Origin: an uncultured Chloroflexia bacterium
GTDB lineage: Bacteria > Chloroflexota > Limnocylindria > Limnocylindrales > CSP1-4
Direction of reading: 5' to 3'
NCBI GenBank assembly: GCA_963813705.1
Contig: CAWFAH010000010.1
Span: forward strand, 921,085-985,084
DNA length: 64,000 nt
Of this stretch, positions 21,287 through 54,713 are shown piece after piece. Position numbers and translations under genes: made by a program. The notes under the pieces are model-generated. The model saw nothing but the letters and a program-made list of their open reading frames with translations. It was not told where the DNA came from and ran no database searches. The stretch's first letter is position 1. The number at the start of each line of letters is the position of its first letter.

Positions 21287-22445
21287 CTAGACGCGACCCT
21301 TTGGAACGGTGTGCCAGTAGGTCTTGTTGAAGACGATCTTGCCGAGGTGCCACAGCCGGTTCGGCTTCGGTGGCTTCGGCGGGTGGTCGTAGTCGAACTG
21401 CAGCAAGGTGCCCTTGCCGTCGCCGATCTCGAAGAAGCACATCACCTTGCCCTGGTAGTCGACGTGCTTGCCGGCCGGCTCGCGACCCTCGACCGCCGCC
21501 GCGATCCGCTCGGCGACGACGGGCGCCTCGAAGTGGGCCGTCGACCCGGCCTTCGAGAGCGGCAGGTCGGTTGCATCGCCGAGGGCGAAGATGTCCTCGT
21601 GACCGCCGACCTGGAGCGTGTTCCGGTCGGTCGGCAGCCAGCCGCCGGGCGCCGGGGCGAGACCCGAGTCGATGAGGTACTGCTGGCCCTTGTGCGGCGG
21701 GACGAGGATGAGCAGGTCGTAGGGCAGCTCCTCGCCCTCCAGGCTGAGGACGACCTTCCGCTCCGGGTCGATCGCCTCGACGTTGAAGAACGTGTGGAGC
21801 TCGATCCCCTTCTGCTCCAGGATCGGGGTGGCCATCTCGCTGACCGATTCGATCGTGAACGCGCGCCCGATCGGCGAGCAGAAGTGGAGCTCGCTCTTCG
21901 AGCGCAGGCCGCGCTCGCGGAGCTCGGCCTCGATGAGGAAGGCGACCTCGAGCGGCGCGGGCGGGCACTTGTACGGCATTCCGGCGATGCCGATGACGAT
22001 CCGTCCGCCCGTGAACGCGTCGAGGGCGGTCGCGCAGCCTGGCGGCGGCCGCCGCGGTGTAGAAGTGCTGCGCCTCGGTGTCGAAGTGCTCGATCGACTC
22101 GGGCACGATCCGCGACCCCGTGGCGAGGACGAGCTGGTCGTAGAGCAGCTGCAGGCCGTCGGTCAGCGTGACGATCCGCGACGTCGGGTCGACCGTGGCG
22201 ATCTCGCCCACGATGAGCTGGACGCGCCGGTCGAGCAGCGAGCGCTCGGGTCGCTTGAGGTTCGCGGCGCGCTCGCCGCCCATGGCGATGTACATGAACC
22301 CGGGCTGGTAGACGTGGCTGCCGGTCTGGTCGACGACGGTCAGCTCGACCTCTCCGCGATCGATCCGCTCGCGGAGCTTCTTGACCAGGAGGTTGGCGGT
22401 CAGCGTGCCACCAACCCCGCCGCCGAGGATCAGGATCCGGTCCAT
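21287..22445 (-). pseudogene. sqr: Sulfide:quinone oxidoreductase / NAD(P)/FAD-dependent oxidoreductase (SQR-like), interrupted by a single-base frameshift near 22024-22028
   Basis: N-terminal part MDRILILGGGVGGTLTANLL...HFYTAAAAARLRD is in one frame. C-terminal part ALDAFTGGRIVIGIAGMPYKCPPAPLE...TYWHTVPKGRV is in the -1 frame. An extra G/C in a GGG/CCC run (+ strand cgagGGcggtc) explains the shift. Confidence 0.8.
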
Positions 22446-22449
22446 CGAG

Positions 22450-22713
22450 CTACCGCACCTTCTCGACGATGATCGCGTCGTACCCGTCACGGGTCTCGAC
22501 GGAGATCAGCCGGTGGCCGGCCTTCTCGATCCACTTGGGGATGTCGATCCGGCTGCCCTTGTCGGACGAGCGCACCTCGAGCACGTCGCCGACCTGGCCT
22601 TCGCGGATCGCCCGGATGAGCTCCATCAGCGGGCCCGGGCAGAAGCTGCCCCGGGCGTCGATGGTCCGGGTGATCGTGGGGATCTCGAGCGTGTCGGTCA
22701 TCGCGGGTTCCAT
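22450..22713 (-). CDS. tusA: Sulfurtransferase TusA family protein
   Basis: 87 aa with CPxP motif (DARGSFCPGPLMEL). Lies 4 nt upstream of the SQR start. Confidence 0.8.
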   Translation of the reverse strand: MEPAMTDTLEIPTITRTIDARGSFCPGPLMELIRAIREGQVGDVLEVRSSDKGSRIDIPKWIEKAGHRLISVETRDGYDAIIVEKVR

Positions 22714-22754
22714 GCCTTTCGGTCTGGGTCGGACGCGCAGGCCCGACGGTTCGT

Positions 22755-23312
22755 TCAGATGAACAGCGGAGCCGAGCCCTCGGTCATCAGGCCGATGACC
22801 GTGGCCGCGCCGACCGGCTCGGCCATGCCGTCGATCATGTCCTCGGGCTTGAGCCCGAACATGTCCATGGTCATCTGGCAGGGGATGAACTCGACGCCCA
22901 TGAGCTGGGCGGCCTCGAGCAGCTCCTTCGGGCTGGCGACGTGGTACTGCTTCGCCAGGCGGCCCATCATCCAGGGGCCCATCCCGAGGAAGTTCATCTT
23001 CGACAGCTTGCGATGGCTCATGCCGGGTCGCTGCATGGCCGACAGCATCTTCTGCATCCAGTTGTCGCCGGTGATCCGGCGCTCGTCCTTGACGAAGGCC
23101 TGGAGGCCCCAGAACGTCACGAAGACGCGGGTCTTGACGCCCATCGCCGCCGACGTGGAGGCGAGGATCGTCATCGCCCAGACCTTCTCGAGATCACCGC
23201 TGTAGTCGATGATCAGGACGTCGCGCAGCTTGGACTCCGGTTCCTGGACGACCTGCGGGACCGGCTCGGGGATCGGCGTCTCGCGAACGGGCGCCTCCGC
23301 GATCATGGTCAT
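22755..23312 (-). CDS. DsrE/DsrF/DsrH-like family protein (DsrE2-type)
   Basis: 185 aa. Conserved DsrE-like blocks (VWAMTILASTSAAMGVKTRVFVTFWGLQAF...GVEFIPCQMTMDMFG) including the cysteine. Confidence 0.8.
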   Translation of the reverse strand: MTMIAEAPVRETPIPEPVPQVVQEPESKLRDVLIIDYSGDLEKVWAMTILASTSAAMGVKTRVFVTFWGLQAFVKDERRITGDNWMQKMLSAMQRPGMSHRKLSKMNFLGMGPWMMGRLAKQYHVASPKELLEAAQLMGVEFIPCQMTMDMFGLKPEDMIDGMAEPVGAATVIGLMTEGSAPLFI

Positions 23313-23328
23313 GGTGCGTTCCTTTCGC

Positions 23329-23577
23329 TCAGCGGACGCGGATGACGAAGCGGTAGACCGCCCCGTCGGAAGTGGACTCGAGGAGCTCGTTGGCGGTCGT
23401 CTTCGACCAGGCGGCGAAGTCCTTGATCGAACCCGGGTCGGTCGCCAGAACCTCGAGGGCCTGGCCGGAGGCCATGGTCTTCACGGCCTGGGCCGTCTTG
23501 ACGATCGGCAGCGGGCAGGACAGCCCGCGCGCGTCGACGGTCTGGGCGATCTCGACGATCGGTGTCATGGTCGGCAA
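23329..23577 (-). CDS. tusA: Sulfurtransferase TusA family protein (second copy)
   Basis: 82 aa, DARGLSCPLPIVKT CPxP motif. Confidence 0.85.
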   Translation of the reverse strand: MPTMTPIVEIAQTVDARGLSCPLPIVKTAQAVKTMASGQALEVLATDPGSIKDFAAWSKTTANELLESTSDGAVYRFVIRVR

Positions 23578-23608
23578 CTCCCTTCGGTGGTGACCGCGGC
23601 TCCGGCGG

Positions 23609-24022
23609 TCAAATGAACACGACCTGGCCCTCGCCGGCGTTCAGGTAGAAGGCCGTCACGCCTTCGACCCCGTCGACGAGCGGATCGAGATCCGTCTGCT
23701 CGAGCCCGAGCAGGTCCATGGACAGCGAGCACGCCTCGATGTCGATCGAGCCGAGCTCCTTGGCCATCCGCAGCGTGTCGGCCCAGCTGGCCTGGCCGGC
23801 CGTCCGGAGCGCGTCGACCTGACGGCGACCCTCGTCGCCGGCCTCGGGGGCGAGCCCGTGGTCGCGGCCGATGCGGTCCGCCCGGAAGGCGTCGAGCGCC
23901 CAGTACTGGAGGAAGACGTTGACCGGCTTGCCGAGCGCGGCGGCGCCGGCGGCAAGGACGGAGGCGGCCTGGAGCCGATCGTCGGTGCCGGAGAAGAGGA
24001 CCAGGTTCAGGGGCTCGTCCAT
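23609..24022 (-). CDS. DsrE/DsrF-like family protein (DsrE3-type)
   Basis: 137 aa, LNLVLFSGTDDRLQAASVLAAGAAALGKPVNVFLQYWAL...IEACSLSMDLLGL. DsrE fold motifs with the active-site Cys. Confidence 0.75.
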   Translation of the reverse strand: MDEPLNLVLFSGTDDRLQAASVLAAGAAALGKPVNVFLQYWALDAFRADRIGRDHGLAPEAGDEGRRQVDALRTAGQASWADTLRMAKELGSIDIEACSLSMDLLGLEQTDLDPLVDGVEGVTAFYLNAGEGQVVFI

Positions 24023-24035
24023 GGTTCAGGTGACC

Positions 24036-24449
24036 TCAGCTGACGATTGAGATGGCAGGGTGCTTGCGGACACGGGCCGGTTGGCCGGAACCCGATCGTC
24101 GGGCGCCCGCCGCGGGGCCTGAGGACGGCGTTGCCGGCGCGTCGTCGGGCAGCCCGGCGAGCCGGCGGATGCGCCGCTCGAGGACGCCGCGCATGATCGA
24201 GCAGGCGACCATGACGTCGGGGTCGGCCAGGCGGTAGCGGACCTCACGTCCGTCGCGCTCCGCCTCGACCACGCCCGCGCTGCGGAGCAGCGCCAGGTGC
24301 TGGGAGGCGTTGGGCTGGGTCATCCCGAGCTCGTCGGCCAGCCGGCCGACCTCGCACGGCCCGTCGGCCAGCCGGTGCAGGATCTCGAGCCGGCGCGGGC
24401 TGGCGAGCGTCTTGAGCACTTCGGCCTGGAGCGAGTTGATGTCGTCCAT
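24036..24449 (-). CDS. ArsR/SmtB family transcriptional regulator; candidate persulfide-responsive SqrR/BigR-like repressor
   Basis: HTH LKTLASPRRLEILHRLADGPCEVGRLADELGMTQPNASQHLALLRSAGVV with two Cys (GPCEV, VACSIM) placed like the SqrR/BigR sensing cysteines. First gene of the sulfur cluster. Confidence 0.9.
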   Translation of the reverse strand: MDDINSLQAEVLKTLASPRRLEILHRLADGPCEVGRLADELGMTQPNASQHLALLRSAGVVEAERDGREVRYRLADPDVMVACSIMRGVLERRIRRLAGLPDDAPATPSSGPAAGARRSGSGQPARVRKHPAISIVS

Positions 24450-24606
24450 GGCCCGAGCATCGACCTATGCGCAGATGCTGATGAGTGCCGCCCGGCCCGG
24501 GCCGGGGGGCCGCCGGTCATCCGTGCGGCAGGCCGGTCGGCCGGCGCGGTTCGGCCGTGGCCACGGCCTCGTTCGTGGCCGTCGGCCACTCTCCGTCACC
24601 ACCTAG

Positions 24607-24663
24607 CGGTCCGCGTGGTGCGTGCCGGGACCCGGCCGGGGTCCGGTCTCGGTCCGCGTGGTG
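24607..24663. repeat. Direct repeat CGGTCCGCGTGGTGC (x2, 42 bp apart), each followed by a CCGGCCGGGTCCGG-like segment, in the arsR upstream region
   Basis: Seen directly. Located between the hemerythrin gene and the arsR-like start. Confidence 0.3.
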
Positions 24664-24877
24664 CCCGGCCGGGTCCGGGTCCCTCGTATCATCAGCGAGC
24701 AATGGGGGCGCTGCATGATGTCGATCGGGGCCGCTCGAACGCGGCGGGCCGATCTCCGACTACCCGCGCTGCTAGGTGGCGATTGGTCGACCGCGCCGGC
24801 ATGCGCCGACGACGCGAGCAGCGGCAGACTCCGATCGAACGCGGCCGGACCCCGACCGGTCTCACTCGGCCGAGAGG

Positions 24878-25357
24878 TCAGACGGTGGCTGCCGTCGAAT
24901 GGCTCTCGGTGGCGTCCAGCAGCGGGACGAGGAACCGTTCCTCGCGCTCCACGTGACAGTGGATGAGCGCGTGGAGGGCGTACAGCCGGGCGCGGATCTC
25001 GCCGAGATGGCGGTGCGTCGGCTCGCGCCGGAGGAGCTCCCAGTCGATCTCGAGCCGATCGATCAGCTCGCGGATCTGGCGGTGGTCGAAGCGCATCGAG
25101 CGGGTCACCCAGGGCGTCCCGGCGATCCGGTCGAGCTCGGGATAGAGCCACGAGTCCTCCCAGTCGCAATGCGGCAGGAACGACTTGTGGAGCCAGTCGA
25201 GGACGCTGCGCAGGGAGGCCGAGAGGTCCGGCGCGGCCAGGCTGCCGGCCAATCCGGCGACATCGTCGATCCGGCCGATGCCGGGCAGCATCTCACGGTG
25301 CTCGCTCTCGACGAAGCGGCGCTCGACCTCGGCGCCGTGGCGCAGATCCATGGACAT
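24878..25357 (-). CDS. Hemerythrin domain-containing protein
   Basis: 159 aa with H...HxxxE...H...HxxxxE spacing (HREMLPG, HKSFLPHCDWED, FDHRQIRE, HALIHCHVEREE). Confidence 0.8.
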   Translation of the reverse strand: MSMDLRHGAEVERRFVESEHREMLPGIGRIDDVAGLAGSLAAPDLSASLRSVLDWLHKSFLPHCDWEDSWLYPELDRIAGTPWVTRSMRFDHRQIRELIDRLEIDWELLRREPTHRHLGEIRARLYALHALIHCHVEREERFLVPLLDATESHSTAATV

Positions 25358-25540
25358 CGTCGCCTCCCGGGCCGTCTAACGTCGACCCTGCTCGCCGGTC
25401 CGGAACGGCCGATCGAGTGACCTCATGGTCGGCCCGGTGAACGCGACCAGATAGGGCGATGAGTCACGACGGCCGGGTCGGTCCGGCCCGTTCCGGCGTG
25501 CCGCACGCCCCCCGGACATGCGGCCCGCAGCGTGATCGGG

Positions 25541-26452: not shown

Positions 26453-26784
26453 GGGGATCCGGCTCAATGTGCTCCTTTCCACCAGGACATCGCGGGTGGC
26501 GCGATGGCGATGGGCTGGGCCGCACGAAGGCAGGGGCACCCCGGTTCTGGCCGCAGGGCGGCGGCAGATGGGAACGGGCGCCAGCGGGGCTGGCGTCGGG
26601 ACGACGACACACGGTCGGCCGTTCGGGCGGCGTTCTTCGGTTGTCGTGTCCCGTTCGGAGGGTCGCGTTCCGGCGGAGGATACCCGGGATCGGGGTTCTG
26701 TGCACCCGGCGCGACGATCCAGTGGTGCATCCGGGCCACGACATCGGAGCCCACGGGCCGGAACCGGACGCCGCGGCGCGGTGT

Positions 26785-28346: not shown

Positions 28347-28438
28347 CCCGGGGAACCGGCCGACGGGCGCCGGTGTAGATGGGGCAGCGGACGCCGACCG
28401 GCGCCCGACCGGCGATCCCGGCGACGAGGACCACGACG

Positions 28439-29806: not shown

Positions 29807-29848
29807 CCGGGCAGGCAGAACGGCCGCCGGCCGCCGCCGAGCAGGCCG

Positions 29849-31842: not shown

Positions 31843-32831
31843 CGCCGCACCAGGTAGCCGAAGACGCTCTCGAGGTCCTCGTCGGTCGGGCGGACCTCGC
31901 GGAGCGTCAGCCCGGCGTCGCGGGCGATGACCGCCAGGGCCCGGGTGAACGCCGCGTAGTCCGAGGTCCGGACCGCGAGCCGGCCGTCGGTCAGCTCGAC
32001 CCCGTACACGGCGGGATGCCCGACGAGGCCCGCCGCCAGCCGGCGGTCGTCCGACGAGTGGATCGTGAACGTGTGCGGCCGATCGGTCATCAGGCGGCGG
32101 ATCTCGCGGAAGTCCCCGGACGCGGCCAGCCGTCCGGCGACGATCACGAGCACGTTCTGGGCGAGCCGCTCGACCTCCTCGAGGATGTGCGAGCTGAACA
32201 GAATGGTCCGTCCCTCGCTCGCCATCCGCCGGAGGAGCTCCATCATGTGCAGCCGCTGGCGCGGGTCCATCCCGTTGAACGGCTCGTCGAGGAGCAGGAC
32301 CGGCGGCTCGTGGACGAGGGCACCGGCGATCTTCGCCCGCTGGCGCATCCCCTTCGAGTACGTCCCGATCGGGCGGTCGGCGGCGTCGGTCAGCTCGACC
32401 GTGGCGATCGCCCGGGCCGCCGCTCCGTCCGGGTCGGGCATCGCCTGCAGCCGGGCGTTGAGCCGGGCGAACTCGCGGCCGGTCAGGAACGGGTAGACCG
32501 CCTCGCGCTCGGGCACGAGACCGATCCGCCGGTAGACGTCCGGGTCCCGCCAGGCCGGCTGCCCGTCGATCACCACCCGCCCGGCCGACGGCCGGAGGAG
32601 GCCCGAGATCATGTGGAGCAGGGTCGACTTCCCCGCCCCGTTCGGTCCGAGCAGCCCGGTGACCCCGGGGCGCAGGGTGAACGAGATGTCGTTGACGGCG
32701 ACGACGTTGCCGTACCAGCGCGACACGTCCTGGAGCTCGACGGTCGCCGTCGGGTCGAGCGGGCGGGGCGGACGCAGGACGGCGCCCGAACCGGCGGCCG
32801 GTCCCCACAGCGGAGCGCGCTCGTCGGTCAC
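31839..32831 (-). CDS. ABC transporter ATP-binding protein
   Basis: Walker A GPNGAGKST. Signature YSKGMRQRAKIA. Walker B LLLDEPFNGMD. Start (GTG at 32831) uncertain. Confidence 0.85.
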   Translation of the reverse strand: MTDERAPLWGPAAGSGAVLRPPRPLDPTATVELQDVSRWYGNVVAVNDISFTLRPGVTGLLGPNGAGKSTLLHMISGLLRPSAGRVVIDGQPAWRDPDVYRRIGLVPEREAVYPFLTGREFARLNARLQAMPDPDGAAARAIATVELTDAADRPIGTYSKGMRQRAKIAGALVHEPPVLLLDEPFNGMDPRQRLHMMELLRRMASEGRTILFSSHILEEVERLAQNVLVIVAGRLAASGDFREIRRLMTDRPHTFTIHSSDDRRLAAGLVGHPAVYGVELTDGRLAVRTSDYAAFTRALAVIARDAGLTLREVRPTDEDLESVFGYLVRR

Positions 32832-41735: not shown

Positions 41736-41864
41736 GATGCGGCGACTCGCATCACCGACGAGGTGCCCGGACGGCGCGATGCGGCGACTCGCATCACCGA
41801 CGAGGTGCCCGGACGGCGCGATGCGGCGGAAGCTCGCATCACCGACAGAGGTGCCCGGACGGCG
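41736..41864. repeat. Tandem repeat, 42-bp unit x3 (third copy 45 bp), GATGCGGCGACTCGCATCACCGACGAGGTGCCCGGACGGCGC; each unit begins with a hairpin GATGCG-N6-CGCATC; MIRU/VNTR-like intergenic repeat
   Basis: Units at 41736-41777, 41778-41819 and 41820-41864. Copies 1 and 2 are identical. Copy 3 carries small insertions. Unit lengths are multiples of 3. Confidence 0.7.
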
Positions 41865-41936
41865 CGGAAGGCGGGCTCCACGCGGGAGGCCGGCGGGCGT
41901 TCGCGGGGGCCAGGGCCGGCGAGCCGGCCGCCGGGC

Positions 41937-42836: not shown

Positions 42837-43003
42837 CGTCGCGACCTTGGAGCTGCTCACGGTCCGATTATCGCGGGCCTGCCGCCCAGCCGTCGCTCCC
42901 CCGGCGACACGGTTTCGTACGATGTCGGACGGGAGTGCGGTCGGACGGGAGTGTCGCGGCGACGCGGGAGATCGCCGCGCGGAGGGAACGGGAGGGTCGC
43001 CGG

Positions 43004-44222
43004 GTGGCCTCGGTTCAACGCGCCCAGGCGGGCTGGGCATCGCTCGCCCGGGGGCTCTTCCTCGTGGCGATGGCCCTGTTCGTGATCACCGTCGCGATCG
43101 GCATCGTCAACGGGCTGGACCTCTACACGTTCGACCACAACCAGCTGCTGACCCACGTCCACTCGGGGACGCTCGGCTGGATCACGCTCAGCCTCGTCGC
43201 CGGTACGTTCTGGCTCGTTCGCGACGGTGACCGCCGGCTCGCGGCGACGCTGGCGATCCTGATCCCGATCTACGTGGCTGCGTTCTACTCGGGCAGCCTG
43301 CCCGCCCGCGCCATCACCGGCACGGCGCTCCTCGTGGCGATCCTGTGGCTCGTCGGGTGGGTCTGGCTCGCCGTCCGCCGCGAACCGACGATCCCGCTCC
43401 TCGCGGTGACCCTTGGGCTCACCTCCTTCGCCTACGGCGCGATCATCGGCGTCCTGATCCAGATCCAGCTCGCGAGCGGGACGAACCTGTTCCCCGGCGG
43501 GGCGGACGCGATCGGCGCGCACGCGGGAACGATGGTCTTCAGCTACCTCATCCTCGTGGCGATGGGGCTGCTCGAGTGGCGCGTCGTCGGCCTGCGCCGG
43601 CGCTCGCGGACCGGGCTCGTCCAGATCGCCGCCCTGTTCGGCGGCGGGCTCCTGCTCGCGCTGAGCCTGCTCTTCCTCGACGCCGCCGCGGTCCAGGCGG
43701 TCGGCGGCATCTACCTCCTGGTCGAGGTCGTGGCCGTCGCCCTGTTCACCGGCCGGGTCGTCCGGCACGCCGTGCGGATCGACTGGCGTGCGGCCAGCCC
43801 GGAGCGCCATCTCGCCGCATCGGCCGCGTTCGTCCTGGTGGCCACGGCGATCTTCCTGTACGTCGTCTTCCTGTTCATCTCGACGGGCGACCAGTCGAAG
43901 ATCCCGGCCGGCGTCCTGATCGCCAGCGACCACGCCGCGTTCATCGGCGTGATCACCAACCTGATCTTCGGGCTGGCGCTGCGGCTCGGCACCGACCGGC
44001 GCGACCGCTGGCCGTGGGCCGACCAGGTCGTGTTCTGGGCGATGAACGGCGGGCTGCTCGTCTTCCTCGCTGGGACTGATCGCGGTGTCGCCGGAGCTCA
44101 AGCGAGTCGGCAGCCCGATCATGGGCATCGCCATCCTCCTCGGCCTGGCGACGATCGCCGTGCGCCTCTGGTCGTCGGACCTGCGCGAGGCCGACACGGT
44201 GGACGAGATCGCGGTCTCCTGA
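43004..44222 (+). pseudogene. Hypothetical polytopic membrane protein (~10 TM) with single-base frameshift near 44072-44075
   Basis: GTG start with a GGGAGGG RBS. Frame 1 gives TM helices up to ...LLVFLAG. A coherent C-terminus (LIAVSPELKRVGSPIMGIAILLGLATIAVRLWSSDLREADTVDEIAVS*) continues in frame +1 to the stop at 44220-22. An extra G in a GGG run explains the shift. Confidence 0.55.
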
Positions 44223-44253
44223 CGGCGTTCCGCCGCCACCGGCAGGCCAGCCG

Positions 44254-45615
44254 TCAGCCGCCGACCTCGCCATCGTGCATTGCGCCGGCTTGGGCGGCCT
44301 CGCGACCCAGCGCCGCGCCGCGCTGAGCCACGTCGGCAACGGCCTCGCCGAAGATCCGCAGGGCGGTCGCCATCTCGGCGGCGCTGACCGTCAGGGCGGG
44401 CGACATCCGGACGCTCTTCCGGCCGCACTCCAGCACGAGGAGCCCGCGCACGAAGCAGGCCCACTGGACCTCCTCGGCGTGCTCGGGCGTGTCGAGCTCG
44501 ATCCCGATCATCAGCCCGCGACCGCGGACGTCGACGATCAGGCCAGGGTGCCGTACGGCCAGCCGGCGGAGCCCCGCGAACGCCTCCTCGCCACGGGCGG
44601 CCGCGTTCTCCACGAGGCCGCCCTCGAGGAGCTCGATCGTGGCCAGGGCGGCCGCGCAGGCGACCGGGTTGCCGCCGTACGTCGAGCCGTGGGCACCGGG
44701 GCCCCAGGCCTCGAGGATCGACGACCGGGCGACGAGCGCGCCGAGGGTCATGCCGCTCGCGATCCCCTTCGCCGCGAGCAGGATGTCGGGCTGCACGCCC
44801 CAGTGCTCGACGGCCCACATCTTCCCGGTCCGCCCGGCGCCCGACTGGATCTCGTCGGCGACGAGGAGAATCCCGTGCTGGTCGCAGATCGCGCGCAGCC
44901 CCTCGAGGAAGCCGTCCTCGGGGACGATGTAGCCGCCCTCGCCCTGGATCGGCTCGACGACGATCGCCGCCACCTCGTCCGCCGGCGCGAGCTTGTCGAA
45001 CAGGACCTCGTCGAACCAGCGCAGGTCCTCGACCCGCCCGAACGGGGCGTGGAAGACGCCCGGCAGGAGCGGCCCGAAGCCGGCGTGGTACTTCGCCTTC
45101 GAGGCAGTCAGGCTGACCGAGCCGTAGCTCCGGCCGTGGAAGGCGCCAAGGAAGGCCACCACGTAGGGGCGGTGCGTCGCGTAGCGGGCGAGCTTGATCG
45201 CCGTCTCGACGACCTCGGTGCCGGAGTTGCCGAGGTAGACGCGCACCGGGCCGTCCATCGGGGCCAGCCCCGCGATCCGCTCGCACGTCTCGGCGTAGAT
45301 CGGGAGGTAGAAGTCCGAGGCGCTGAAGTGGATCAGCTCGGCCGCCTGCTCCTTGATCGCCGCGACGACCTGGGGATGGCTGTGCCCGGTCGAGTTGACC
45401 GCGATCCCCGCCGCGAAGTCGAGGAACAGGTTGCCGTCGATGTCCTCGACCGTCAGGCCCTCGCCGCGAACCGGCACGATCGGGTAGGCGCGGGGCAGGC
45501 TGGGCGAGGTCCAGGTCTCGTCGTAGGCGACGTGGGCGCGGGCTTTCGGGCCGGGAATCTCGGTGACGAGGTCGGGAACCGGCCGCGCCTGAGCGAGCCG
45601 CGATGCCTGGGCCAA
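44254..45615 (-). CDS. gabT: 4-aminobutyrate aminotransferase-like class III PLP enzyme (GabT family)
   Basis: 453 aa. N-terminal GPKARAHVAYDETWTSPS. LVADEIQSGAGRTGKMWAVEHWGVQPDILLAAKG with PLP Lys. STYGGNPVACAAA. Confidence 0.9.
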   Translation of the reverse strand: MAQASRLAQARPVPDLVTEIPGPKARAHVAYDETWTSPSLPRAYPIVPVRGEGLTVEDIDGNLFLDFAAGIAVNSTGHSHPQVVAAIKEQAAELIHFSASDFYLPIYAETCERIAGLAPMDGPVRVYLGNSGTEVVETAIKLARYATHRPYVVAFLGAFHGRSYGSVSLTASKAKYHAGFGPLLPGVFHAPFGRVEDLRWFDEVLFDKLAPADEVAAIVVEPIQGEGGYIVPEDGFLEGLRAICDQHGILLVADEIQSGAGRTGKMWAVEHWGVQPDILLAAKGIASGMTLGALVARSSILEAWGPGAHGSTYGGNPVACAAALATIELLEGGLVENAAARGEEAFAGLRRLAVRHPGLIVDVRGRGLMIGIELDTPEHAEEVQWACFVRGLLVLECGRKSVRMSPALTVSAAEMATALRIFGEAVADVAQRGAALGREAAQAGAMHDGEVGG

Positions 45616-45692
45616 GGGACACCTCGACGCATAGGGTTTATGCAGACTGGATACTCGAGCCAGTCTATCAGACGGCCCGCTAGGATTCGGCC

Positions 45693-46589
45693 GTGAGGCC
45701 GCCGATCCGCTTCGGGCTGTTCATGAGCCAGGCCGGCCGGACCTGGGACGAGGTCCTCGACGGCTTCCGGCTCGCCGAGGACCTCGGCTTCGACCATGGC
45801 TGGCTCGTCGACCACCTCGTGGACACGGACCACGGGCCGGGCGTCCCGGTCCTCGAGGCGTGGACGCTGCTCGCGGCGCTCGCTGCACGGACGAGCCGGA
45901 TCCGGCTGGGCGTCCTCGTCACGAGCAACACCTTCCGCCACCCGGCCCTCCTGCTCAAGGAGGCCGTCACGGTCGACCACGTCAGCGGTGGCCGGCTCAC
46001 CCTCGGCCTCGGGTCGGGCTGGAACGTGGACGAGCACCGGCGCTACGGGATCGACCTCCCGGAGCCGAAGGAGCGGGTGGACCGCCTCGCCGAGGCGGTC
46101 GAGCTCATCGACCGCCTGCAGCGCGAGGAGCGGACGACGTTCGCCGGCCGCTTCTACCACGTCGACGACGCGCCGCTCGACCCGCGGCCGCTGCAGCAAC
46201 CCCGGATCCCGCTGCTCATCGCCGCCCACCGGCCGCGCATGCTCCGCCTCGCGGCGCGCTACGCCGACCAGTGGGACACGTTCCCGACGATCCCCGGGGC
46301 GTCGACCGACGGCGTCGCCCTGTCGATCGCCGAGCAGTCCGCACTTCTCGACGCCGCCTGCCGCGAGCTCGGCCGCAACCCCGACACGATCCGTCGCTCG
46401 ACCTGGGCCGAGTGGGCCGACGTGCTGGTCACCACCGGAGCGTTCGAGGCGTTCGTGGAGTCGCACCGCCGGCTGGGCTTTACCGACTTCACCGTGGTGC
46501 TGCCGCCGCCGGGCCGGCGCAACGTCCTCGAGGCGGTCGCGCGCGACGTGATTCCCCGGCTGCGCGTGGAGGACGTGGCCGCGCGCTGA
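45693..46589 (+). CDS. LLM class F420-dependent oxidoreductase (luciferase-like monooxygenase family)
   Basis: IRFGLFMSQAG...LGFDHGWLVDHL...RIRLGVLVTSNTFRHPALLLKEAVTVDHVSGGRLTLGLGSGW, classic LLM blocks. GTG start. Confidence 0.85.
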   Translation: MRPPIRFGLFMSQAGRTWDEVLDGFRLAEDLGFDHGWLVDHLVDTDHGPGVPVLEAWTLLAALAARTSRIRLGVLVTSNTFRHPALLLKEAVTVDHVSGGRLTLGLGSGWNVDEHRRYGIDLPEPKERVDRLAEAVELIDRLQREERTTFAGRFYHVDDAPLDPRPLQQPRIPLLIAAHRPRMLRLAARYADQWDTFPTIPGASTDGVALSIAEQSALLDAACRELGRNPDTIRRSTWAEWADVLVTTGAFEAFVESHRRLGFTDFTVVLPPPGRRNVLEAVARDVIPRLRVEDVAAR

Positions 46590-46731
46590 CATCGGGGCGC
46601 GGAGTCGCGGCGGTGCGGTCGCACGGTACCGACGGCTCGTCGGATGGCCCGAAGGTCGTAGGCGGGAATGGTCCACCCGCTGGCCCGTACGACCTATCGC
46701 CATGCGTTTGGATGGGGACTAGGCTCGTCCG

Positions 46732-47247
46732 GTGACCTCCGCAGCATCCCCCAAGCGTCGGATCGCGATCGGGTCGACGTTCACCCTCTACGCGGTGCTG
46801 GGCGTGACACCCGACGCCGACCCAGAGACGATCCGCAACGCCTACCGCGAGCTCGCCCGTCGCTACCACCCGGACGCCGGCGGCGACGCCCGCTACATGG
46901 CCGCGATCAACAAGGCCTGGGGCGAGCTGCGCGACCCGGAGCGGCGCGCGGCGTACGACCGCAAGATGCGGCTCGACCGCCCGGTGACGGTGTCGCCCGC
47001 CCCGCGACCCGAGGCCGCCAGCGCGGCGAGCACCGCCACACCCGCCGACGTCGCACCGCCGCCGGCCCCGGCGGCGCCGCGGGCGACGTCGAGCTCGGGG
47101 ACCATCCTCGACTTCGGACGCTACGAGGGCTGGACGATCGGGCAGCTCGCCAGCCGGGACCCGGAGTACCTGCTGTGGCTCGAGCGGACGCCGATCGGCC
47201 GCCCGCTGCGGGCCGAGATCGAGGCCGCGCTCACCGCTCGACGCTGA
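46732..47247 (+). CDS. J domain-containing protein (DnaJ-like co-chaperone domain protein)
   Basis: J-domain with HPD tripeptide (TLYAVLGVTPDADPETIRNAYRELARRYHPDAGGD). Pro/Ala-rich linker and C-terminal domain. Confidence 0.75.
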   Translation: MTSAASPKRRIAIGSTFTLYAVLGVTPDADPETIRNAYRELARRYHPDAGGDARYMAAINKAWGELRDPERRAAYDRKMRLDRPVTVSPAPRPEAASAASTATPADVAPPPAPAAPRATSSSGTILDFGRYEGWTIGQLASRDPEYLLWLERTPIGRPLRAEIEAALTARR

Positions 47248-47276
47248 CGGCGGGCTCGTCCGGGCCGCGTCGCGCG

Positions 47277-48856
47277 CTAGTCGACGATCGTCTGGCTCTG
47301 CTCGCGCATGAACTGCTGGACGTAGTAGAAGCCCGCCGCCGGCCTTGCCCGTCGCGGTGCTGCCCTTCCAGCCGCCGAACGGCTGGATGCCCGGCCAGGC
47401 GCCGGTCGTCGCGCCCGCGCGCCGGTTGACGTAGACCACGCCGGCCTCGATCTCGTCGAGGAACTTGTCGACCTCGTCCTTGTCCTCGGAGTAGAACCCG
47501 GCCGTGAGCCCGAGGTTCGTGTCGTTCGACAGCGCGAGCGCCTCGTCGATCGAGTCGACCGGGGCGACGGCAGTGAACGGGATGAACAGCTCGTCGCGGA
47601 ACAGCCGGTGGTCCTTCGGCAGGTCGAGCGCCACCGTCGGAGCGACGAAGAAGCCGGCGTCGAGCCCGTTCTCGGTCACCCGCTCGCCGCCGATCGCGAG
47701 TCGGCCGGCCGAGCGCGCCTCGGCGACGGCCTGCTCGTACCGCGCGACGGCCCTGGCGTTGATCACCGGGCCCAGCCAGTTGCGCCGGTCGGTCGGATCG
47801 CCGATCGTGATCGCCTCGGTCTTCTCGACCAGCCGGCGGACGAGCTCGTCGTGGACCGGCCGCTCGACGTAGACCCGGCTGTTCGCCGAGCACTTCTCGC
47901 CCGAGAACCCGAACGCCGAGCGCATGATCCCCTCGGCCGCCTCGTCGAGGTCGGCATGGCGCGACACGATCGCCGGGTTCTTGCCGCCCATCTCGACGAT
48001 CACCGGCTTCGGGTAGGTCCTGGCGAAGCTCTTGTAGAGCCCGAAGCCGACCTCGAACGAGCCGGTGAAGATGACGCCGTCGACGCCGGGGTTCGTCTGG
48101 ATCTCGTCGCCGACCGTCTCGCCCGCGCCCATGACCATGTTGAACACGCCCGTCGGGGACGCCCGCGTCGCGCATCGCCCGCAGGAGGCAGGCGCCCGAC
48201 AGCGGCGCGTCGGACGACGGCTTGTAGACGACCGTGTTGCCGGCCACGAGAGCCCCGCCGGCCGGCCCGCCCGACAGCGCGAACGGGAAGTTGAACGGGC
48301 TGATCACGCCCCACACCCCGTACGGCTTGAGGACCGATCGGGTGTGGACGGTCGCGTCGCCGAGGTTGCCCATCGGATCGTCGAAGCCGTGGTTGCGCTC
48401 CATCATGTCGCACGACCAGCGGATCAGGTCGGCGGTCTCCTCGACGTCGCCGAGCGCCTCGAGCCGGTTCTTGCCGACCTCCATGGACAGCAGGGCGCTG
48501 AACTCCATCTGGCGTTCGCTGATGACGTCGGCGACCCGGCGCAGGATCTCGACGCGCTCCTGCCACGGCCGGCGCCCCCAGGCCGGGAACGCCGCCCGGG
48601 CCGCGGCGATGGCGTCCTGGACGTCCTTGCGCGATCCCTTCGCGAACGTCCCCATGACCGAGCCGTCGATCGGGGAGCGCTTCTCGAAGGTGCCGTCGCC
48701 GTCGCGCTCGGCGCCGCCGACGAAGTTGCGATAGGACCCGCCGAGCATCGTCCGCGCCTTGGCGAGCCCCGCCTCGTACTGGGCGTGAAGCTCCTCGTTG
48801 TCGTTGCGCAGCGTGGCGTAGGTGATCTTCAGGCGGGGCTTCGCCTCGGTCGACAT
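47277..48856 (-). pseudogene. Aldehyde dehydrogenase family protein, L-glutamate gamma-semialdehyde (1-pyrroline-5-carboxylate) dehydrogenase-like (RocA/PruA type), carrying two single-base frameshifts (near 48149-48151 and 47332-47334)
   Basis: Three frames concatenate to a full ALDH: MSTEAKPRLKITYATL...KPSSDAPLSGACLLRAMRDAGVPDG | VFNMVMGAGETVGDEI...VEMGGKNPAIV...FGFSGEKCSANSR...GIQPFGGWKGSTATGKAGGG | FYYVQQFMREQSQTIVD*. Catalytic Cys and Glu are present. Both shifts are an extra G/C in GGG/CCC runs. Confidence 0.8.
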
Positions 48857-48931
48857 CGTGGTGCTCCTGGTTTCGTGATCCGCGGGCCGAGCGTGGTCCA
48901 GTGACCTTCCAGTGTAGCCGGAGCGACCGGC

Positions 48932-49807: not shown

Positions 49808-49840
49808 CGCCACAGCGTACCCGTCTGCTACCCTCGGCCG

Positions 49841-50620: not shown

Positions 50621-50703
50621 GCCGGCCACAGCCGGACGCCGCGGCGTCGCGCGTGGCATCCCGGTCCGCCGAACGGTGAGCCGTTCCGGGTATCGTCCAG
50701 GGC

Positions 50704-51228
50704 ATGGCCCTGCGAGTCGTCCTCGGTCACGGCGCGTCCGGCACGGCCGCGAGCATGGCGCCCTTCGTCGAGGGGCTGCGTGCCCGCGGGATCGACGCGG
50801 TCGCGGTCGACCTGCCGCGGCGCAAGGCGGAGGATGTCGTCCCACGCTGGCTCGAGCTGGCGCCGCCGGGACCCGGGATCGTCGCCGGCGGCCACTCGTT
50901 CGGCGGGCGCGTGGCCAGCCTCGCCGCTGCGGCGGCCGGCGAGACGGGCGGCTACCGCGGGCTCGTGTGCTACTCCTACCCGCTCCATCGGCCCGGCGCG
51001 CCCGAGCTGGGGCCGCGAGTCGCGCACTGGCCCTCGATCGCCTGCCCGGTCCTGCTGCTGTCGGGCGAATCCGACCCGTTCGCGCGGATCGACCTCCTGC
51101 GGGCGGCGGTCCCGCTGCTCCGTCACGGCGAGCTCGTCACGTACCCCCGGCTCGGTCACGGCCTGAAGCCGGTCCTCGACGACGCCCTGGACCGGACGGC
51201 AGCGTTCATCCGCGCCCTGCCCGCATGA
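50704..51228 (+). CDS. Alpha/beta hydrolase fold protein (dienelactone hydrolase-like, 174 aa)
   Basis: Nucleophile elbow GGHSFGG. C-terminal His in RLGHG. Its stop overlaps the next gene. Confidence 0.75.
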   Translation: MALRVVLGHGASGTAASMAPFVEGLRARGIDAVAVDLPRRKAEDVVPRWLELAPPGPGIVAGGHSFGGRVASLAAAAAGETGGYRGLVCYSYPLHRPGAPELGPRVAHWPSIACPVLLLSGESDPFARIDLLRAAVPLLRHGELVTYPRLGHGLKPVLDDALDRTAAFIRALPA

Positions 51229-52271
51229 GCGCGCGGGTCGGCATCGGTCTGGTCGGCGCCGGGCGGATGGGCTCGGTGCACGCCCGGCTCATCGCCGGCG
51301 GCATTGCCGGGGCGCGGCTCGCAGGGATCGCCGATGTCGATCGCGCGGCGGCGCGGCGGCTGGCGGCCGAGGTCGGCGACCCGCCCGCCTACGGCTCGCT
51401 CGATGAGCTCCTCGTGGCTCCCGGGATCGACGCCGTGCTGATCGCCATCTCCTCGCACCGCCACCTCGACGCGATCCGCGCTGCCGCGGCGGCCGGCAAG
51501 GACATCCTGTGCGAGAAGCCGATCGCGCTGACGATCGAGGACACCGATGCGGCCATCGCGGCGACGGACGCGGCCGGCATCCGGCTGCAGGTCGGGTTCA
51601 TGCGCCGCTGGGACCCCGACTACGCCCGGGCGAAGGAACGCCTGGCCTCGGGCCGCTACGGACGACCGACGCTGTTCACCTCGCTCCAGTTCGACCCGGC
51701 GCCGCCGCCGCTCGCGTTCGCCGATCCAGCCGTCAGCGGCGGGATCATGGTCGACATGGGGATCCACGAGTTCGACCTGGCCCGCTGGCTGATGGCGGAC
51801 GAGGTCGCCGAGGTCCACGCCTACGGCAGCGCGATCGCCAGCCCAGCGTTCGGGGCGATCGGCGATGCCGACACCGTGGCGGTCGCGCTGCGCTTCGCCG
51901 GCGGCGCGCTCGGCAGCGTGCTGCTCGCCCGGTCCACGACCTACGGGGAGGACGTCCGGACGGAGGTCCTCGCCACGAACGGCTCGGTCTGGATCGGCGG
52001 CATCCCGACGACGCCGGGCGCTTCGAGCGGTGGCCTCCCGCGCGCTGCGGGCGGGCCGTGGACCGGCGCGCTCGCGACCGATACCCTCGACCCGTCGATC
52101 CCGCGGTTCGAGCGTGGCTACGCCGATCAGACCCGCGGCTTCGTCGAGGCGATCGTCGCCGACCGTCCCGTCGCGGTGCCGGCGTGGGAGAGCCGAGCCG
52201 CGCTCCGGATCGCCGTGGCAGCCGATCGCTCGATGCACGAGGGTCGCCCGGTAGCGGTCGCCGTCGGGTGA
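51225..52271 (+). CDS. Gfo/Idh/MocA family oxidoreductase
   Basis: N-terminal Rossmann VGIGLVGAGRMGSVHA and EKP motif ILCEKPIALT. ATGA overlap with the upstream gene. Confidence 0.85.
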   Translation: MSARVGIGLVGAGRMGSVHARLIAGGIAGARLAGIADVDRAAARRLAAEVGDPPAYGSLDELLVAPGIDAVLIAISSHRHLDAIRAAAAAGKDILCEKPIALTIEDTDAAIAATDAAGIRLQVGFMRRWDPDYARAKERLASGRYGRPTLFTSLQFDPAPPPLAFADPAVSGGIMVDMGIHEFDLARWLMADEVAEVHAYGSAIASPAFGAIGDADTVAVALRFAGGALGSVLLARSTTYGEDVRTEVLATNGSVWIGGIPTTPGASSGGLPRAAGGPWTGALATDTLDPSIPRFERGYADQTRGFVEAIVADRPVAVPAWESRAALRIAVAADRSMHEGRPVAVAVG

Positions 52272-52345
52272 CCGGGCTGCAGCGCGGGCTTGTCCCGCTC
52301 GGCGCGGGTGCCTATCGTGCCGTCATAGGAAGGAAGGATCCCGCC

Positions 52346-53440
52346 ATGGACGTCGCGACCGACACGCCGCTCGCCCGGATGACCCGGACCACGCCGACCG
52401 AGTACTGGAACAATTCGCCCGCCGTGGCCGAGCTCGAGTACGCGATCGCGAACGGGGCGGTCGGGGCGACCTCGAACCCGACGATCGTCGGCGAGGTCCT
52501 GCGCAAGGAGCTCGACGCCTGGCGGCCGCGGATCCGTGAGCTGAGCGAGGAGCGCCCGACCGCGACCGACGTCGAGGTCACCTGGGCGGTCGCCGAGGCG
52601 ATGGCCGTCCGCGGCGCCGCCCTGCTCGAGCCGATCTTCGTCCGCGAGCGCGGGCGCAAGGGCCGCCTGTCGATCCAGACGAACCCGACCTTCCATCGGG
52701 ACGCCGAACGGATGCTCGACCAGGGTCGCCGGTTCGCCGGCCTGGCGCCGAACATCCAGGTCAAGTTCCCGGCGACGAGCGCCGGGCTCGAGGCGATCGA
52801 GGCGGCCACCTTCGACGGCATCTCGATCAACGCGACGGTGTCGTTCACCCTGCCGCAGGCCCTCGCGGTCGGCGCCGCCGTCGAGCGCGGCCTGGCCCGC
52901 CGCGAGGCCGCCGGCCTGGACGTGGCCGCGATGAGCCCGGTCTGCACCCTGATGATCGGCCGGCTCGACGACTGGGTGAAGGCGGTCTGCGAGCGCGACG
53001 ACATCGTGGTCGACCCGGCCGCCCCGAACTGGGCGGGGATCGCCGTGTTCAAGCGCGCGGCCGGGATCTACGCCGAGCGGGGCTACCGGACCCGACTCCT
53101 GGCGGCGGCCTACCGCCATCGCCTCCACTGGACCGAGCTTGTCGGCGGCGATGTCACCCTGACGATGCCTCACCAGTGGCAGGTCCGGTTCAACGCGTCC
53201 GGGATCGACGCGCCCGCCCGCTTCGCCGAGCCCGTCCCCGCCGAGATGCTCGACGACCTCCTGGCCCGCGTTCCCGACTTCGGGCGCGCCTATGAGCCGG
53301 ACGGCCTGAGCGTGGCCGAGTTCGACACGTACGGGGCGACGGTGCGGACGCTGCGGGCCTTCATCTCGAGCTACTGGGACCTCGTCCGCGCCGTCGACGA
53401 GCTGCTGCTGCCGAACCCGGACGTGCGCTCGGCGCGGTGA
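52346..53440 (+). CDS. Transaldolase family protein
   Basis: GGAAGGAAGG RBS. Motif GATSNPTIV. Schiff-base Lys in IQVKFPATSAGLEAIEA. Confidence 0.85.
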   Translation: MDVATDTPLARMTRTTPTEYWNNSPAVAELEYAIANGAVGATSNPTIVGEVLRKELDAWRPRIRELSEERPTATDVEVTWAVAEAMAVRGAALLEPIFVRERGRKGRLSIQTNPTFHRDAERMLDQGRRFAGLAPNIQVKFPATSAGLEAIEAATFDGISINATVSFTLPQALAVGAAVERGLARREAAGLDVAAMSPVCTLMIGRLDDWVKAVCERDDIVVDPAAPNWAGIAVFKRAAGIYAERGYRTRLLAAAYRHRLHWTELVGGDVTLTMPHQWQVRFNASGIDAPARFAEPVPAEMLDDLLARVPDFGRAYEPDGLSVAEFDTYGATVRTLRAFISSYWDLVRAVDELLLPNPDVRSAR

Positions 53441-54054
53441 ACCGGATCCGGCTCACCCCGACGGAGCGGCGATTCCTCGAGTCGACCCGACGCATCGTGC
53501 TCGTGACCGTCGACGTGCACGGCCGGCCGCGTGCCGTGCCGATCTGCTTCACCGTCGCCGACGAGCCGGACGGGACCGTGGTCTGGAGCCCGATCGACGA
53601 GAAGCCGAAGCAGTCCGGCGATCCGCGCGACCTCGCCCGGGTGCGCGACGTCGCCGAGCGACCCGAGGTCGGCCTCCTGGCCGACCGCTGGGACGAGGAC
53701 TGGGGCCGGCTCGCCTGGCTCCGCCTCCGGGGCGCCGCGGCGCTGGTCGAACCCGACGGCGCCCCGAGCGACCGCCGCCCGTTGTGGCCCGGACCGCGCG
53801 CGATCGCCGGGCTCCGGGCGCGCTATCCGCAGTACGCCGATCACGACCTCGAGTCGCGGCCGCTCATCCGGATCGAGCTGTCCGAGTCGCTCGCCTGGGG
53901 CGATCTCGGCGCGCGGAGGCGGACCCGCGGCCGGCGGCTGACGGCCCGGCGTCGACCGCCGCCCGCGACCCGGCGCCGAGTCGAGCGGCCTGCCGGCGGC
54001 GTCCAAATGGCACTGGCCGGCTCGGGCTCGGCCAGGACGACACTCCCGGGATAG
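53437..54054 (+). CDS. PPOX class F420-dependent / pyridoxamine 5'-phosphate oxidase family protein
   Basis: GTG start overlapping the transaldolase stop. RRIVLVTVDVHGRPRAVPICF...WGRLAWLRLRGAAALVEPDG is split-barrel PPOX-like. The Arg-rich C-terminal ~60 aa are of uncertain reality. Confidence 0.7.
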   Translation: MNRIRLTPTERRFLESTRRIVLVTVDVHGRPRAVPICFTVADEPDGTVVWSPIDEKPKQSGDPRDLARVRDVAERPEVGLLADRWDEDWGRLAWLRLRGAAALVEPDGAPSDRRPLWPGPRAIAGLRARYPQYADHDLESRPLIRIELSESLAWGDLGARRRTRGRRLTARRRPPPATRRRVERPAGGVQMALAGSGSARTTLPG

Positions 54055-54066
54055 GGAGGTACGACC

Positions 54067-54276
54067 GTGCGCAGGCGATCAACCAACCCCGAGCTCGGTG
54101 CGCTCCTGATCGGGGCCATCCTGCTGCTCGTCGGCGGCTACTACCTGCTGACCAGCACCCTCGGGCTCGCCCTGCCCGAGCTCAACTGGGACGCAATCTG
54201 GCCGCTGTTCGTCATCGCCCTCGGGATCGGGATCCTGTGGCGGGCGGTGGACACGCACGCCGCCGATCGTTCCTGA
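54067..54276 (+). CDS. Small membrane protein (69 aa, 2 TM), hypothetical
   Basis: Short hydrophobic ORF 13 bp after the previous stop. GC3 bias. Weak support. Confidence 0.45.
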   Translation: MRRRSTNPELGALLIGAILLLVGGYYLLTSTLGLALPELNWDAIWPLFVIALGIGILWRAVDTHAADRS

Positions 54277-54427
54277 CCCGCTCGGCACGGTCCTGGCGCG
54301 GTCCTCGCGGGACCGGCACGGACCGGCCAGTCGCGCAACGCGGCAACGACGACACCGCCCGGGGCCGTTTGGGCCGCCGGGCGGTGGGGTGTTGGGCTGC
54401 GAGTGTCGGTCGAGACCGACCGGTCGG

Positions 54428-54713
54428 TCAGACCGGACCGCGTCCGACCCGGCGCGAGCCGGTCAGGAAGCCGGCGATGACGACGACGATGATCGCGCCC
54501 ACGACCGAGATGACGATCGTGCTGAGATCGAGCGGACCCTGGATCGGGTCCTTCACGTTCAGGAGCACGCCGGCGAGGAAGCCGCCGAGCAAGCGCGCCG
54601 ACGACACCGAGCACGATATGGCCAATGATCCCGAGCCCCTCGTCGCCCTTGACGAGGAACCCGGCGAGATAGCCGGCGATCGCGCCAAGCACGATCCAGG
54701 CGATCAGGTTCAT
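54428..54713 (-). pseudogene. GlsB/YeaQ/YmgE family (transglycosylase-associated) stress-response membrane protein with single-base frameshift near 54590-54594
   Basis: GGAGG RBS then MNLIAWIVLGAIAGYLAGFLVKGDEGLGIIGHIVLGVVGAL in one frame. The continuation LGGFLAGVLLNVKDPIQGPLDLSTIVISVVGAIIVVVIAGFLTGSRR is in another frame. Together they form a canonical ~90-aa family member. Confidence 0.6.

Follow-up and report, generated by a model that had tools for sequence, protein, structure and literature searches.

Pseudogenes of reductive evolution, as in Mycobacterium leprae and recent host-restricted pathogens, carry 1-nt indels in conserved genes, and a single gene may be hit more than once. Miscalls in flow-based sequencing (454 and Ion Torrent) concern the length of homopolymers. 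Flow chemistry does not typically insert a base between unlike neighbors. Single-base indels, both insertions and deletions, also split conserved open reading frames (ORFs) in the Nanopore-only MFD metagenome-assembled genomes (MAGs). These MAGs were produced by Flye assembly and one round of Medaka, and their authors acknowledge Nanopore-associated errors at low coverage (PMC12313526). Reduced coding density, a proxy for Nanopore error, was tied mainly to lower coverage, low GC content, and homopolymers longer than 6 nt (PMC12313526).

The stretch of DNA that we analyzed, referred to here as the window, is 64 kb long and comes from a MAG of a soil Limnocylindrales bacterium (Chloroflexota). 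Its GC content is 72%, and its G/C runs do not exceed 6. The preliminary description reported five single-base frame breaks in four genes, and these breaks are real, being visible in three-frame translations of the window. The affected genes encode a sulfide:quinone oxidoreductase (SQR), a membrane protein, an aldehyde dehydrogenase (ALDH) of the P5C dehydrogenase type (two breaks), and a GlsB/YeaQ-family protein. Deleting one base per site gave a full-length protein that matched its homologs end to end. Every one of the breaks is absent from close relatives, and for this reason we judge, from sequence comparison, that the broken frames are very probably consensus errors in a metagenome assembled from long reads, rather than genes in decay. 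Like the MFD MAGs, the window has conserved ORFs split by single-base insertions and deletions. MFD MAGs of the same order have the same defect in the same genes (4 frameshifts in 9 common genes in L001 and 1 in L004), at a density that depends on coverage. The window departs from the MFD error correlates of low GC and homopolymers longer than 6 nt, because it is GC rich and most of its putative errors do not concern homopolymer length.

Even the closest comparators differ in strain from the window, at 99.9%, 99.3%, about 96 to 97%, and 92% identity. No 100%-identical locus was found in the scanned genome contigs, and exact look-ups of proteins encoded in the window gave no match. The runs SRR26545969, SRR28023504, and SRR28023553 contain strains with 99.3 to 99.9% identity to the window. 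Two of the comparators, L081 and L082 (ENA ERZ25039520 and ERZ25039551), have Flye-style contig names. L081 is an independent assembly with about 92% nucleotide identity over the common region; in the ALDH gene, the identity is 97% at the nucleotide level and 99% at the amino acid level. The Logan runs and the JGI contig were assumed to be short-read.

The type III SQR gene (21287 to 22445, minus strand, with its ATG at 22445) is read in two frames. Positions 2 to 116 and 183 to 278 of the Pyr_redox_2 profile fall in different frames, and in the corrected protein, residues 3 to 383 align as one stretch to NF049943 (type III SQR). The extra base is a G at 22032 on the plus strand (GGTC[G]CGC; CTGCG[C]GACC on the coding strand), between C and C. 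It lies outside a CCC/GGG run 9 nt away and is not a homopolymer extension. SQR is the only site that was compared with DNA more than 99% identical to the window. This DNA is a Logan contig (L083, SRR28023504) with 99.3% identity over window positions 21903 to 23529 (1,627 aligned bases), and its sole gap in the alignment is at 22032. Five substitutions relative to this contig lie within 130 nt of the SQR break (22050 to 22158), and all are synonymous.

The membrane-protein gene (42935 to 44222, plus strand) encodes a multi-pass protein of about 380 to 417 aa with an uncertain start codon, and no Pfam or NCBIfam family matched it. Its last 50 or so codons are in another frame, with the switch near 44068 to 44075. 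Most parsimoniously, the extra base in this interval is C44068 (CCT[C]GCT), and the alternatives are the GGG run at 44072 to 44074 or A44075. Removal of C44068 gives FLLGLI, as in L004. The insertion is found in the window alone; it is absent from 12 relatives and from L001, L003, L004, and L055. In L003, L004, and L055, the orthologs are single ORFs that span residues 1-375/381. In the Nanopore MAG L001, this gene is also broken, at most 3 codons from the break in the window (about 44068 to 44076). Such a near-common breakpoint could mark a systematic basecalling hotspot that depends on sequence or on base modification.

The ALDH gene, of the L-glutamate gamma-semialdehyde/P5C dehydrogenase type (47277 to 48856, minus strand), is spread over three frames. 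ALDH profile positions 7 to 195 occupy one frame, positions 181 to 447 another, and the last 17 residues the third. The corrected protein has 525 aa, with 525-aa homologs at 92 to 93% identity and 100% coverage, and its residues 20 to 520 align in a single stretch to the L-glutamate gamma-semialdehyde dehydrogenase model (NF002852/TIGR01237). At site 1 (48149 to 48151, at about codon 235), CC has become CCC on the plus strand. The same change at site 2 (47332 to 47334; GG to GGG on the coding strand) puts the last 17 codons out of frame.

We found that both ALDH insertions are absent from L081 and from 14 relatives. All 20 of the 20 metagenome contigs that matched a 44-mer flanking site 2 lacked the insertion, and the gene was intact in every metagenome contig that spanned it whole. 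At all 80 species-representative loci (MAGs), the ALDH match was in a single frame. An exact 57- to 58-nt pattern across site 1 was absent from the JGI metagenomes searched, whether or not it included the extra base. Another Logan contig (L085, SRR26545969), 99.9% identical to the window over 45421 to 47319 and gapless, ends 13 nt before site 2. L081 has its own +1 insertion (GG to GGG) at a third site in this gene, which makes three private breaks in one gene in two assemblies. The sequence around the ALDH sites hardly varies among relatives.

The GlsB/YeaQ/YmgE (Transgly_assoc) gene (54428 to 54713, minus strand) is split after codon 41, and the frame of the first 41 residues differs from that of the rest. 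The corrected protein of 94 aa has many 94-aa matches, with up to 98% identity and 100% coverage. Alignment to relatives placed the extra base at G54593 on the plus strand (CAA[G]CGC; GCGCG[C]TTG on the coding strand), between A and C, and we rejected an extra T or a homopolymer extension at this site. The insertion is private to the window in comparison with L081, L082, and L087.

The count of five is too low, for about four further indels had been missed in a gene encoding a PNPOx-like protein (53437 to 54054, plus strand). Three- and four-way alignments revealed a deletion of one base near 53762 and an insertion of one base at 53798, and the 12 codons between them are read out of frame. When this pair is undone, the protein reads ERPPPVVARTAAIAGL, as in L082. 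Single-base deletions at 53913 and 53934 cause the loss of the stop, and the ORF is 37 codons too long; restoring both tail bases brings the protein to exactly 168 aa, its length in L081 and L087. The four indels fall within 180 nt, with no excess of substitutions. A few more window-private indels lie outside genes, for example, an insertion at 55490 and a deletion at 54404. By comparison with relatives, the part of the window from 55.5 to 64 kb is error-free, and the indel rate is uneven rather than uniformly high.

Several other frame switches that a coding-potential scan picked up were not frameshifts; they proved to be separate genes that adjoin or overlap, or antisense shadow ORFs of the kind found in a high-GC genome. 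Those at 22704 and 22758 correspond to separate TusA and DsrE genes, that at 31848 to ABC ATPase and ABC-2 permease genes, and that at 49809 to a HAD-gene shadow ORF lying opposite an SDR gene. The switches at 2519/2590, 361/465, and 14591 are due to small separate genes.

An in-frame TGA at 57541 to 57543 (plus strand) had been listed alongside the frame breaks. This codon is not an anomaly or a nonsense mutation; it terminates a 180-aa gene (about 56999 to 57543) in the ordinary way and is unrelated to the errors. The TGA and its flanks are identical in the two related assemblies L081 and L082, and in L081 the gene call also has 180 aa. The sequence that follows (57544 to 57810, plus strand) is a 5'-truncated remnant of the next gene (120 aa in L081), whose start was lost through a 138-nt deletion between 57557 and 57558. 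In L081, which does not have the deletion, the gene starts separately inside the 138-nt segment that is missing from the window. Because the deletion is common to the window and L082, we regard it as a real event and not an error. The remnant is in frame with the upstream TGA by chance.

The first reading of the five breaks held that four of them were an extra G or C in a run of three or more and took this bias as a hallmark of sequencing error. The two ALDH sites do fit that description. At the SQR and GlsB sites, and probably in the membrane-protein gene, the extra base sits between unlike neighbors. The homopolymer argument therefore fails: of the five insertions, no fewer than two, and probably three, do not extend a homopolymer. 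Moreover, a random insertion creates a G/C run of at least 3 in 20% of cases, so two or more such events among five are expected with a probability of 0.26. The observed share, two or possibly three of the five reported sites versus 0.20 per insertion by chance, is at the chance level for 72% GC, and a bias toward homopolymers is not statistically supported. The window has 39 G/C runs of at least 3 per kb, and thus a run is nearly always close to any break. Since 60% of all window positions are no more than 9 nt from such a run, placing an error at the nearest G/C run is unreliable at 72% GC. Nor is the 33-kb span of the five sites out of the ordinary, as the chance that five points placed at random in 64 kb span no more than 33 kb is about 0.2 (order-statistics formula).

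Other signatures were also considered. It is true of the five reported sites that all are insertions; as a platform signature, we rejected this feature, as 53913, 53934, and 54404 are deletions. A link to GATC, as a possible sign of methylation-dependent basecalling error, was likewise rejected. With 12 GATC motifs per kb, the sites are at unremarkable distances from the nearest one. The window contains no Rfam or tRNA matches, and hence there is no RNA explanation for the breaks.

Selection on the affected genes is not relaxed. In the comparison of the window with L081, dN/dS was 0.046 for the corrected ALDH, 0.065 for its codons 235 to 508 after the first break, and 0.040 for GlsB. Neighboring genes gave values of 0.05 to 0.34, excluding a response regulator with no nonsynonymous change. 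ALDH and GlsB are thus among the most constrained genes locally. We also compared the frameshift load among assemblies. The Nanopore-only MFD MAG L001 has 4 frameshifts in the 9 common genes found there. Among the other Nanopore-only MAGs, L004 has 1 and L055 has 0. L002 and L003, which we judged to be short-read by their contig names, have 0 frameshifts in close orthologs. Within 6 kb, L082 shows dozens of 1-nt indels that are private to it. In this small sample of assemblies, the number of frameshifts goes with the assembly technology rather than with phylogeny.

The private indels, the purifying selection, and a load that tracks technology all support the original view, in which the indels are uncorrected products of sequencing or assembly and the genes are not pseudogenes. 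We suggest that the consensus of this MAG was called from noisy reads whose coverage was modest or locally poor, and that errors arose in this way. Between 22 and 55 kb, it would retain at least nine uncorrected single-base indels (six insertions and three deletions) spread over five genes, in addition to the few intergenic ones. The four indels within 180 nt of one gene would fit a locally weak consensus. In this scenario, there is no biological frameshift, and the SQR, membrane-protein, ALDH, PNPOx-like, and GlsB genes are most likely intact in the organism. The source had been given as either long-read or flow-based sequencing, and the evidence points to noisy long reads. Insertions outside homopolymers occur here together with deletions and short extensions of G/C runs, a mixture that long-read consensus error would explain better than flow-based chemistry and that resembles Nanopore-only Flye plus Medaka assemblies of the same clade. 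The two ALDH indels do resemble 454 or Ion Torrent miscalls, in that each extends a two-base G/C run by one. Unlike such miscalls, at least five window-private insertions (22032, 53798, 54593, 55490, and probably 44068) lie between two unlike neighbors, and homopolymers account for no more of the indels than chance would give. The insertion of a base between unlike neighbors therefore makes the flow-based platforms less likely.

The same indels are physically present in the sequence, and they could instead mark genuine recent pseudogenes if a strain-private, mutator-like burst, for example, in a lineage deficient in mismatch repair or following a bottleneck, had hit all five genes. Every comparator is at least 0.1% different from the window, which makes a strain-private mutation possible at any single site, and the 138-nt deletion is one real decay event nearby. 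As in reductive evolution, 1-nt indels occur in conserved genes and one gene is hit repeatedly. However, the hit genes are strongly constrained (dN/dS, 0.04 to 0.05), including ALDH past its first break, and they carry no nonsense or large-scale lesions. ALDH is broken twice here and elsewhere in L081, yet 80 relatives have it intact. Four indels in 180 nt without a substitution excess are also unlike neutral decay. Decay would also predict shared lesions or an elevated dN/dS, whereas all the lesions are private to the window and missing from the closest strains, including a 99.3%-identical contig that lacks the SQR indel. In this clade, comparable frameshifts are seen only in Nanopore-only assemblies, and the defect tracks technology rather than phylogeny. 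We therefore consider recent gene decay very unlikely.

A mixture of co-occurring strains, whose reads collapsed into a chimeric consensus with indels where the strains differ, is an improbable source too; the breaks would then still be artifacts, but of population heterogeneity instead of raw read error. At least three close lineages are present in public data, at 99.9%, 99.3%, and about 96 to 97% identity. The synonymous strain differences bunch beside the SQR indel (22050 to 22158), and the indel-dense region from 53.76 to 55.5 kb is also rich in real length variation among relatives. At the ALDH sites, by contrast, the near invariance among relatives makes confusion of the consensus unlikely. 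The coding signal continues past each break, as it would under programmed recoding, that is, +1 or -1 ribosomal frameshifting, transcriptional slippage, or read-through or selenocysteine insertion at the TGA at 57541. However, no ortholog conserves a break, and relatives encode each protein in a single frame. Direct reading of the break sites found no common slippery motif. The TGA is a genuine stop that is conserved, and L081 has a separate start for the downstream gene. Recoding is thus extremely unlikely, and consensus error remains the explanation that we favor.

As an artifact, the set of breaks is of low biological interest, and its use is mainly as an annotation warning. Frame-preserving or C-terminal indels, such as those in the PNPOx-like gene, evade a search for broken ORFs, and therefore counts of frameshifted ORFs underestimate the true error rate. 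An annotation pipeline would call at least five genes in 64 kb pseudogenes or fragments, among them enzymes of sulfide oxidation and proline/glutamate catabolism. Metabolic reconstruction of this uncultured Chloroflexota lineage, or claims of reductive evolution in it, would be misled.

Because ORF lists were noisy at the 72% GC found throughout the window, we built a codon-usage coding map. It revealed changes of frame on the same strand at about 22035, 44067, 47335, 48155, and 54600, in the SQR gene (21287 to 22445, minus strand), a membrane protein gene (42935 to 44222, plus strand), the ALDH gene (47277 to 48856, minus strand; two switches), and the GlsB-like gene (54428 to 54713, minus strand). 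In Pfam searches, Pyr_redox_2 profile positions 2 to 116 and 183 to 278 of SQR lay in separate frames, as did profile positions 7 to 195 and 181 to 447 of ALDH, and the main GlsB ORF held only positions 6 to 49 of Transgly_assoc. The junctions were directly visible in three-frame translations. Removing one base from SQR gave a single-stretch alignment (residues 3 to 383) to the type III SQR model, and removing one base per site from ALDH gave one (20 to 520) to the L-glutamate gamma-semialdehyde dehydrogenase model. Corrected ALDH (525 aa) and GlsB (94 aa) had many equal-length homologues at 92 to 98% identity and 100% coverage; the best homologues of the corrected proteins were from Candidatus Limnocylindrales (Chloroflexota) soil MAGs. 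The split domains, visible junctions, and full-length matches after correction therefore show that the five single-base breaks claimed in the preliminary description are truly in the sequence. In a tblastn census with the ORFs of 80 related loci, no further robust junctions emerged at 36 to 60 kb. Frame switches at TusA/DsrE, ABC ATPase/permease, and HAD/SDR were rejected as frameshifts, being adjacent genes or antisense shadows.

The SQR gene belongs to a minus-strand sulfur-handling cluster (21287 to 24464) that continues with TusA, a DsrE-like gene (DrsE_2), a second TusA, and two small genes. Its best NCBIfam model was the "selenoprotein subtype" of type III SQR, with a score under the cutoff and no in-frame TGA in the gene. 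No tRNA or Rfam matches were found in the window.

Close relatives were retrieved by exact-protein look-ups. They were the Logan contigs L083 (SRR28023504; window 21903 to 23529, 99.3% identity), L084 (SRR28023553; 22637 to 23602, 99.5%), and L085 (SRR26545969; 45421 to 47319, 99.9%, no gaps); the ENA contigs L082 (ERZ25039551, contig_45065; 51755 to 64000, about 96 to 97%, with many indels of its own) and L081 (ERZ25039520, contig_139232; 45.4 to 64 kb, about 92%); and the JGI contig L087 (3300015373; 53181 to 56578, 83%). We assumed that the Logan and JGI contigs are of short-read origin. Comparison with DNA more than 99% identical covered the SQR site only; L085 ends 13 nt before the ALDH site at 47332 to 47334.

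Every indel was private to the window. Between 51.7 and 64 kb, where two or three outgroups exist, the window-private small indels were at 53798 (+1), 53913 (−1), 53934 (−1), 54020 (+2), 54404 (−1), 54593 (+1), and 55490 (+1), with none from 55.5 to 64 kb. The PNPOx-like gene (53437 to 54054, plus strand) carries about four indels in 180 nt, near 53762, 53798, 53913, and 53934. The compensated pair near 53762/53798 garbles 12 codons, and undoing it restored the conserved ...ERPPPVVARTAAIAGL... motif as in L082. The two tail deletions displace the stop, extending the 168-codon ORF to 205 codons; with both bases put back, the product was exactly 168 aa, the same as in L081 and L087. Such indels are invisible to a broken-ORF search. 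Thus some nine indels, six of them insertions and the other three deletions, disturb the reading frame across five genes of the window, and the original count of five was too low.

The extra bases were also said to favor G/C homopolymers. The sole gap between the window and L083 in SQR is at 22032, a G between two Cs (GGTC[G]CGC), 9 nt off the G/C run that had been blamed. In GlsB, the private base is a G at 54593 (CAA[G]CGC), which ruled out an extra T. The membrane gene insertion is most parsimoniously a C at 44068: removing it brought back the FLLGLI motif and left only synonymous differences from the related MAG locus L004. It could instead be a base of the GGG run. Only the ALDH sites, 47332 to 47334 and 48149 to 48151, are clean CC-to-CCC extensions. 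In the window, G/C runs at least 3 nt long number 39 per kb, and for 60% of positions the nearest is no more than 9 nt away. Because a random insertion creates such a run in 20% of cases, two run extensions among five insertions are unremarkable (P = 0.26), and the reported bias reflects base composition. In the membrane gene of L001 (MFD02242.bin.2.293), we observed a +1 (CT[T]GATC, 19454 to 19458) within three codons of the window break (44068 to 44076), besides a second frameshift. Breaks this close together would arise by chance with a probability of roughly 3%, and the near-coincidence may mark a systematic basecalling hotspot. We found no shared motif, and GATC occurs too often to inform.

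The TGA at 57541, which had been listed alongside the frameshifts, is an ordinary stop. It and its flanks are the same in L081 and L082, its L081 counterpart ends a 180-aa gene, and the next L081 gene (120 aa) starts separately, within a 138-nt segment absent from the window and L082. This deletion (junction 57557/57558) took away the start of a small gene (57544 to 57810) together with its first ~40 codons, and the coding signal after the TGA is the stump of that gene. Because the window shares the deletion with an independent assembly, L082, and not with L081, it is a real truncation rather than an error: a genuine small decay event, unrelated to the frameshifts.

Other differences involve larger segments. 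L081 has about 1.1 kb (11840 to 12941), with a 372-aa gene of unknown function beside a glycosyltransferase, where the window has only ~27 nt (57971 to 57999); here the two close relatives truly differ in gene content. An 853-nt segment (45711 to 46563), most of a luciferase-like monooxygenase gene (45693 to 46589), is absent from L081 (at ~315) and was found gap-free in L085 at 99.9% identity. A 42-nt tandem repeat (three copies, 95% matches; 41736 to 41866) lies in a ~650-nt stretch (41.3 to 41.9 kb) lacking coding signal. Each unit has a short inverted repeat (GATGCG...CGCATC), with no Rfam match.

Are the frameshifts biological? Real, very recent pseudogenisation is very unlikely. A strain-private mutation is conceivable at any single site. 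Between the window and L081, dN/dS was 0.046 for corrected ALDH (0.065 downstream of the first break) and 0.040 for GlsB, the lowest in the neighborhood apart from a response regulator with no nonsynonymous change, and all five substitutions next to the SQR break were synonymous. Such a pattern would not be expected of genes left inactive for the time that second and third indels need. ALDH was unbroken in 80 of 80 species-representative relatives and in every metagenome contig spanning it. L081, an ENA contig assembled independently from a close relative (98 to 99.5% aa identity in ALDH), has its own +1 (GG to GGG) at 1969, corresponding to window ~48218, 69 nt from the ALDH site at 48149 to 48151. 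ALDH thus has two breaks in the window and one in L081, which lies elsewhere but arose in the same GG-to-GGG manner.

Frameshift load follows assembly method. L001, a Nanopore-only Microflora Danica (MFD) MAG, showed four frameshifts across those nine of the shared genes that it was found to carry and L004 had one, while L002 and L003, short-read assemblies judging by contig names, had none. MFD MAGs were assembled with Flye and polished with one Medaka round; the authors themselves concede that Nanopore-associated errors occur (PMC12313526). L082, which is of the same species as the window, has dozens of private 1- to 2-nt indels in 6 kb (58000 to 64000); they break up genes that include one for a 1005-aa histidine kinase. 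The contig resembles a long-read consensus of very low coverage. The insertion of bases between unlike neighbors favors long-read consensus error over flow-based chemistry. Strain-mixture consensus artefacts are about as unlikely as pseudogenisation, and programmed recoding is highly improbable. The comparisons support the original reading of the frameshifts as probable uncorrected sequencing or assembly error rather than a biological feature, on evidence other than that first offered. In a high-GC genome, the nearest G/C run is a poor guide to the position of an error, and pseudogenes should not be called from this assembly.
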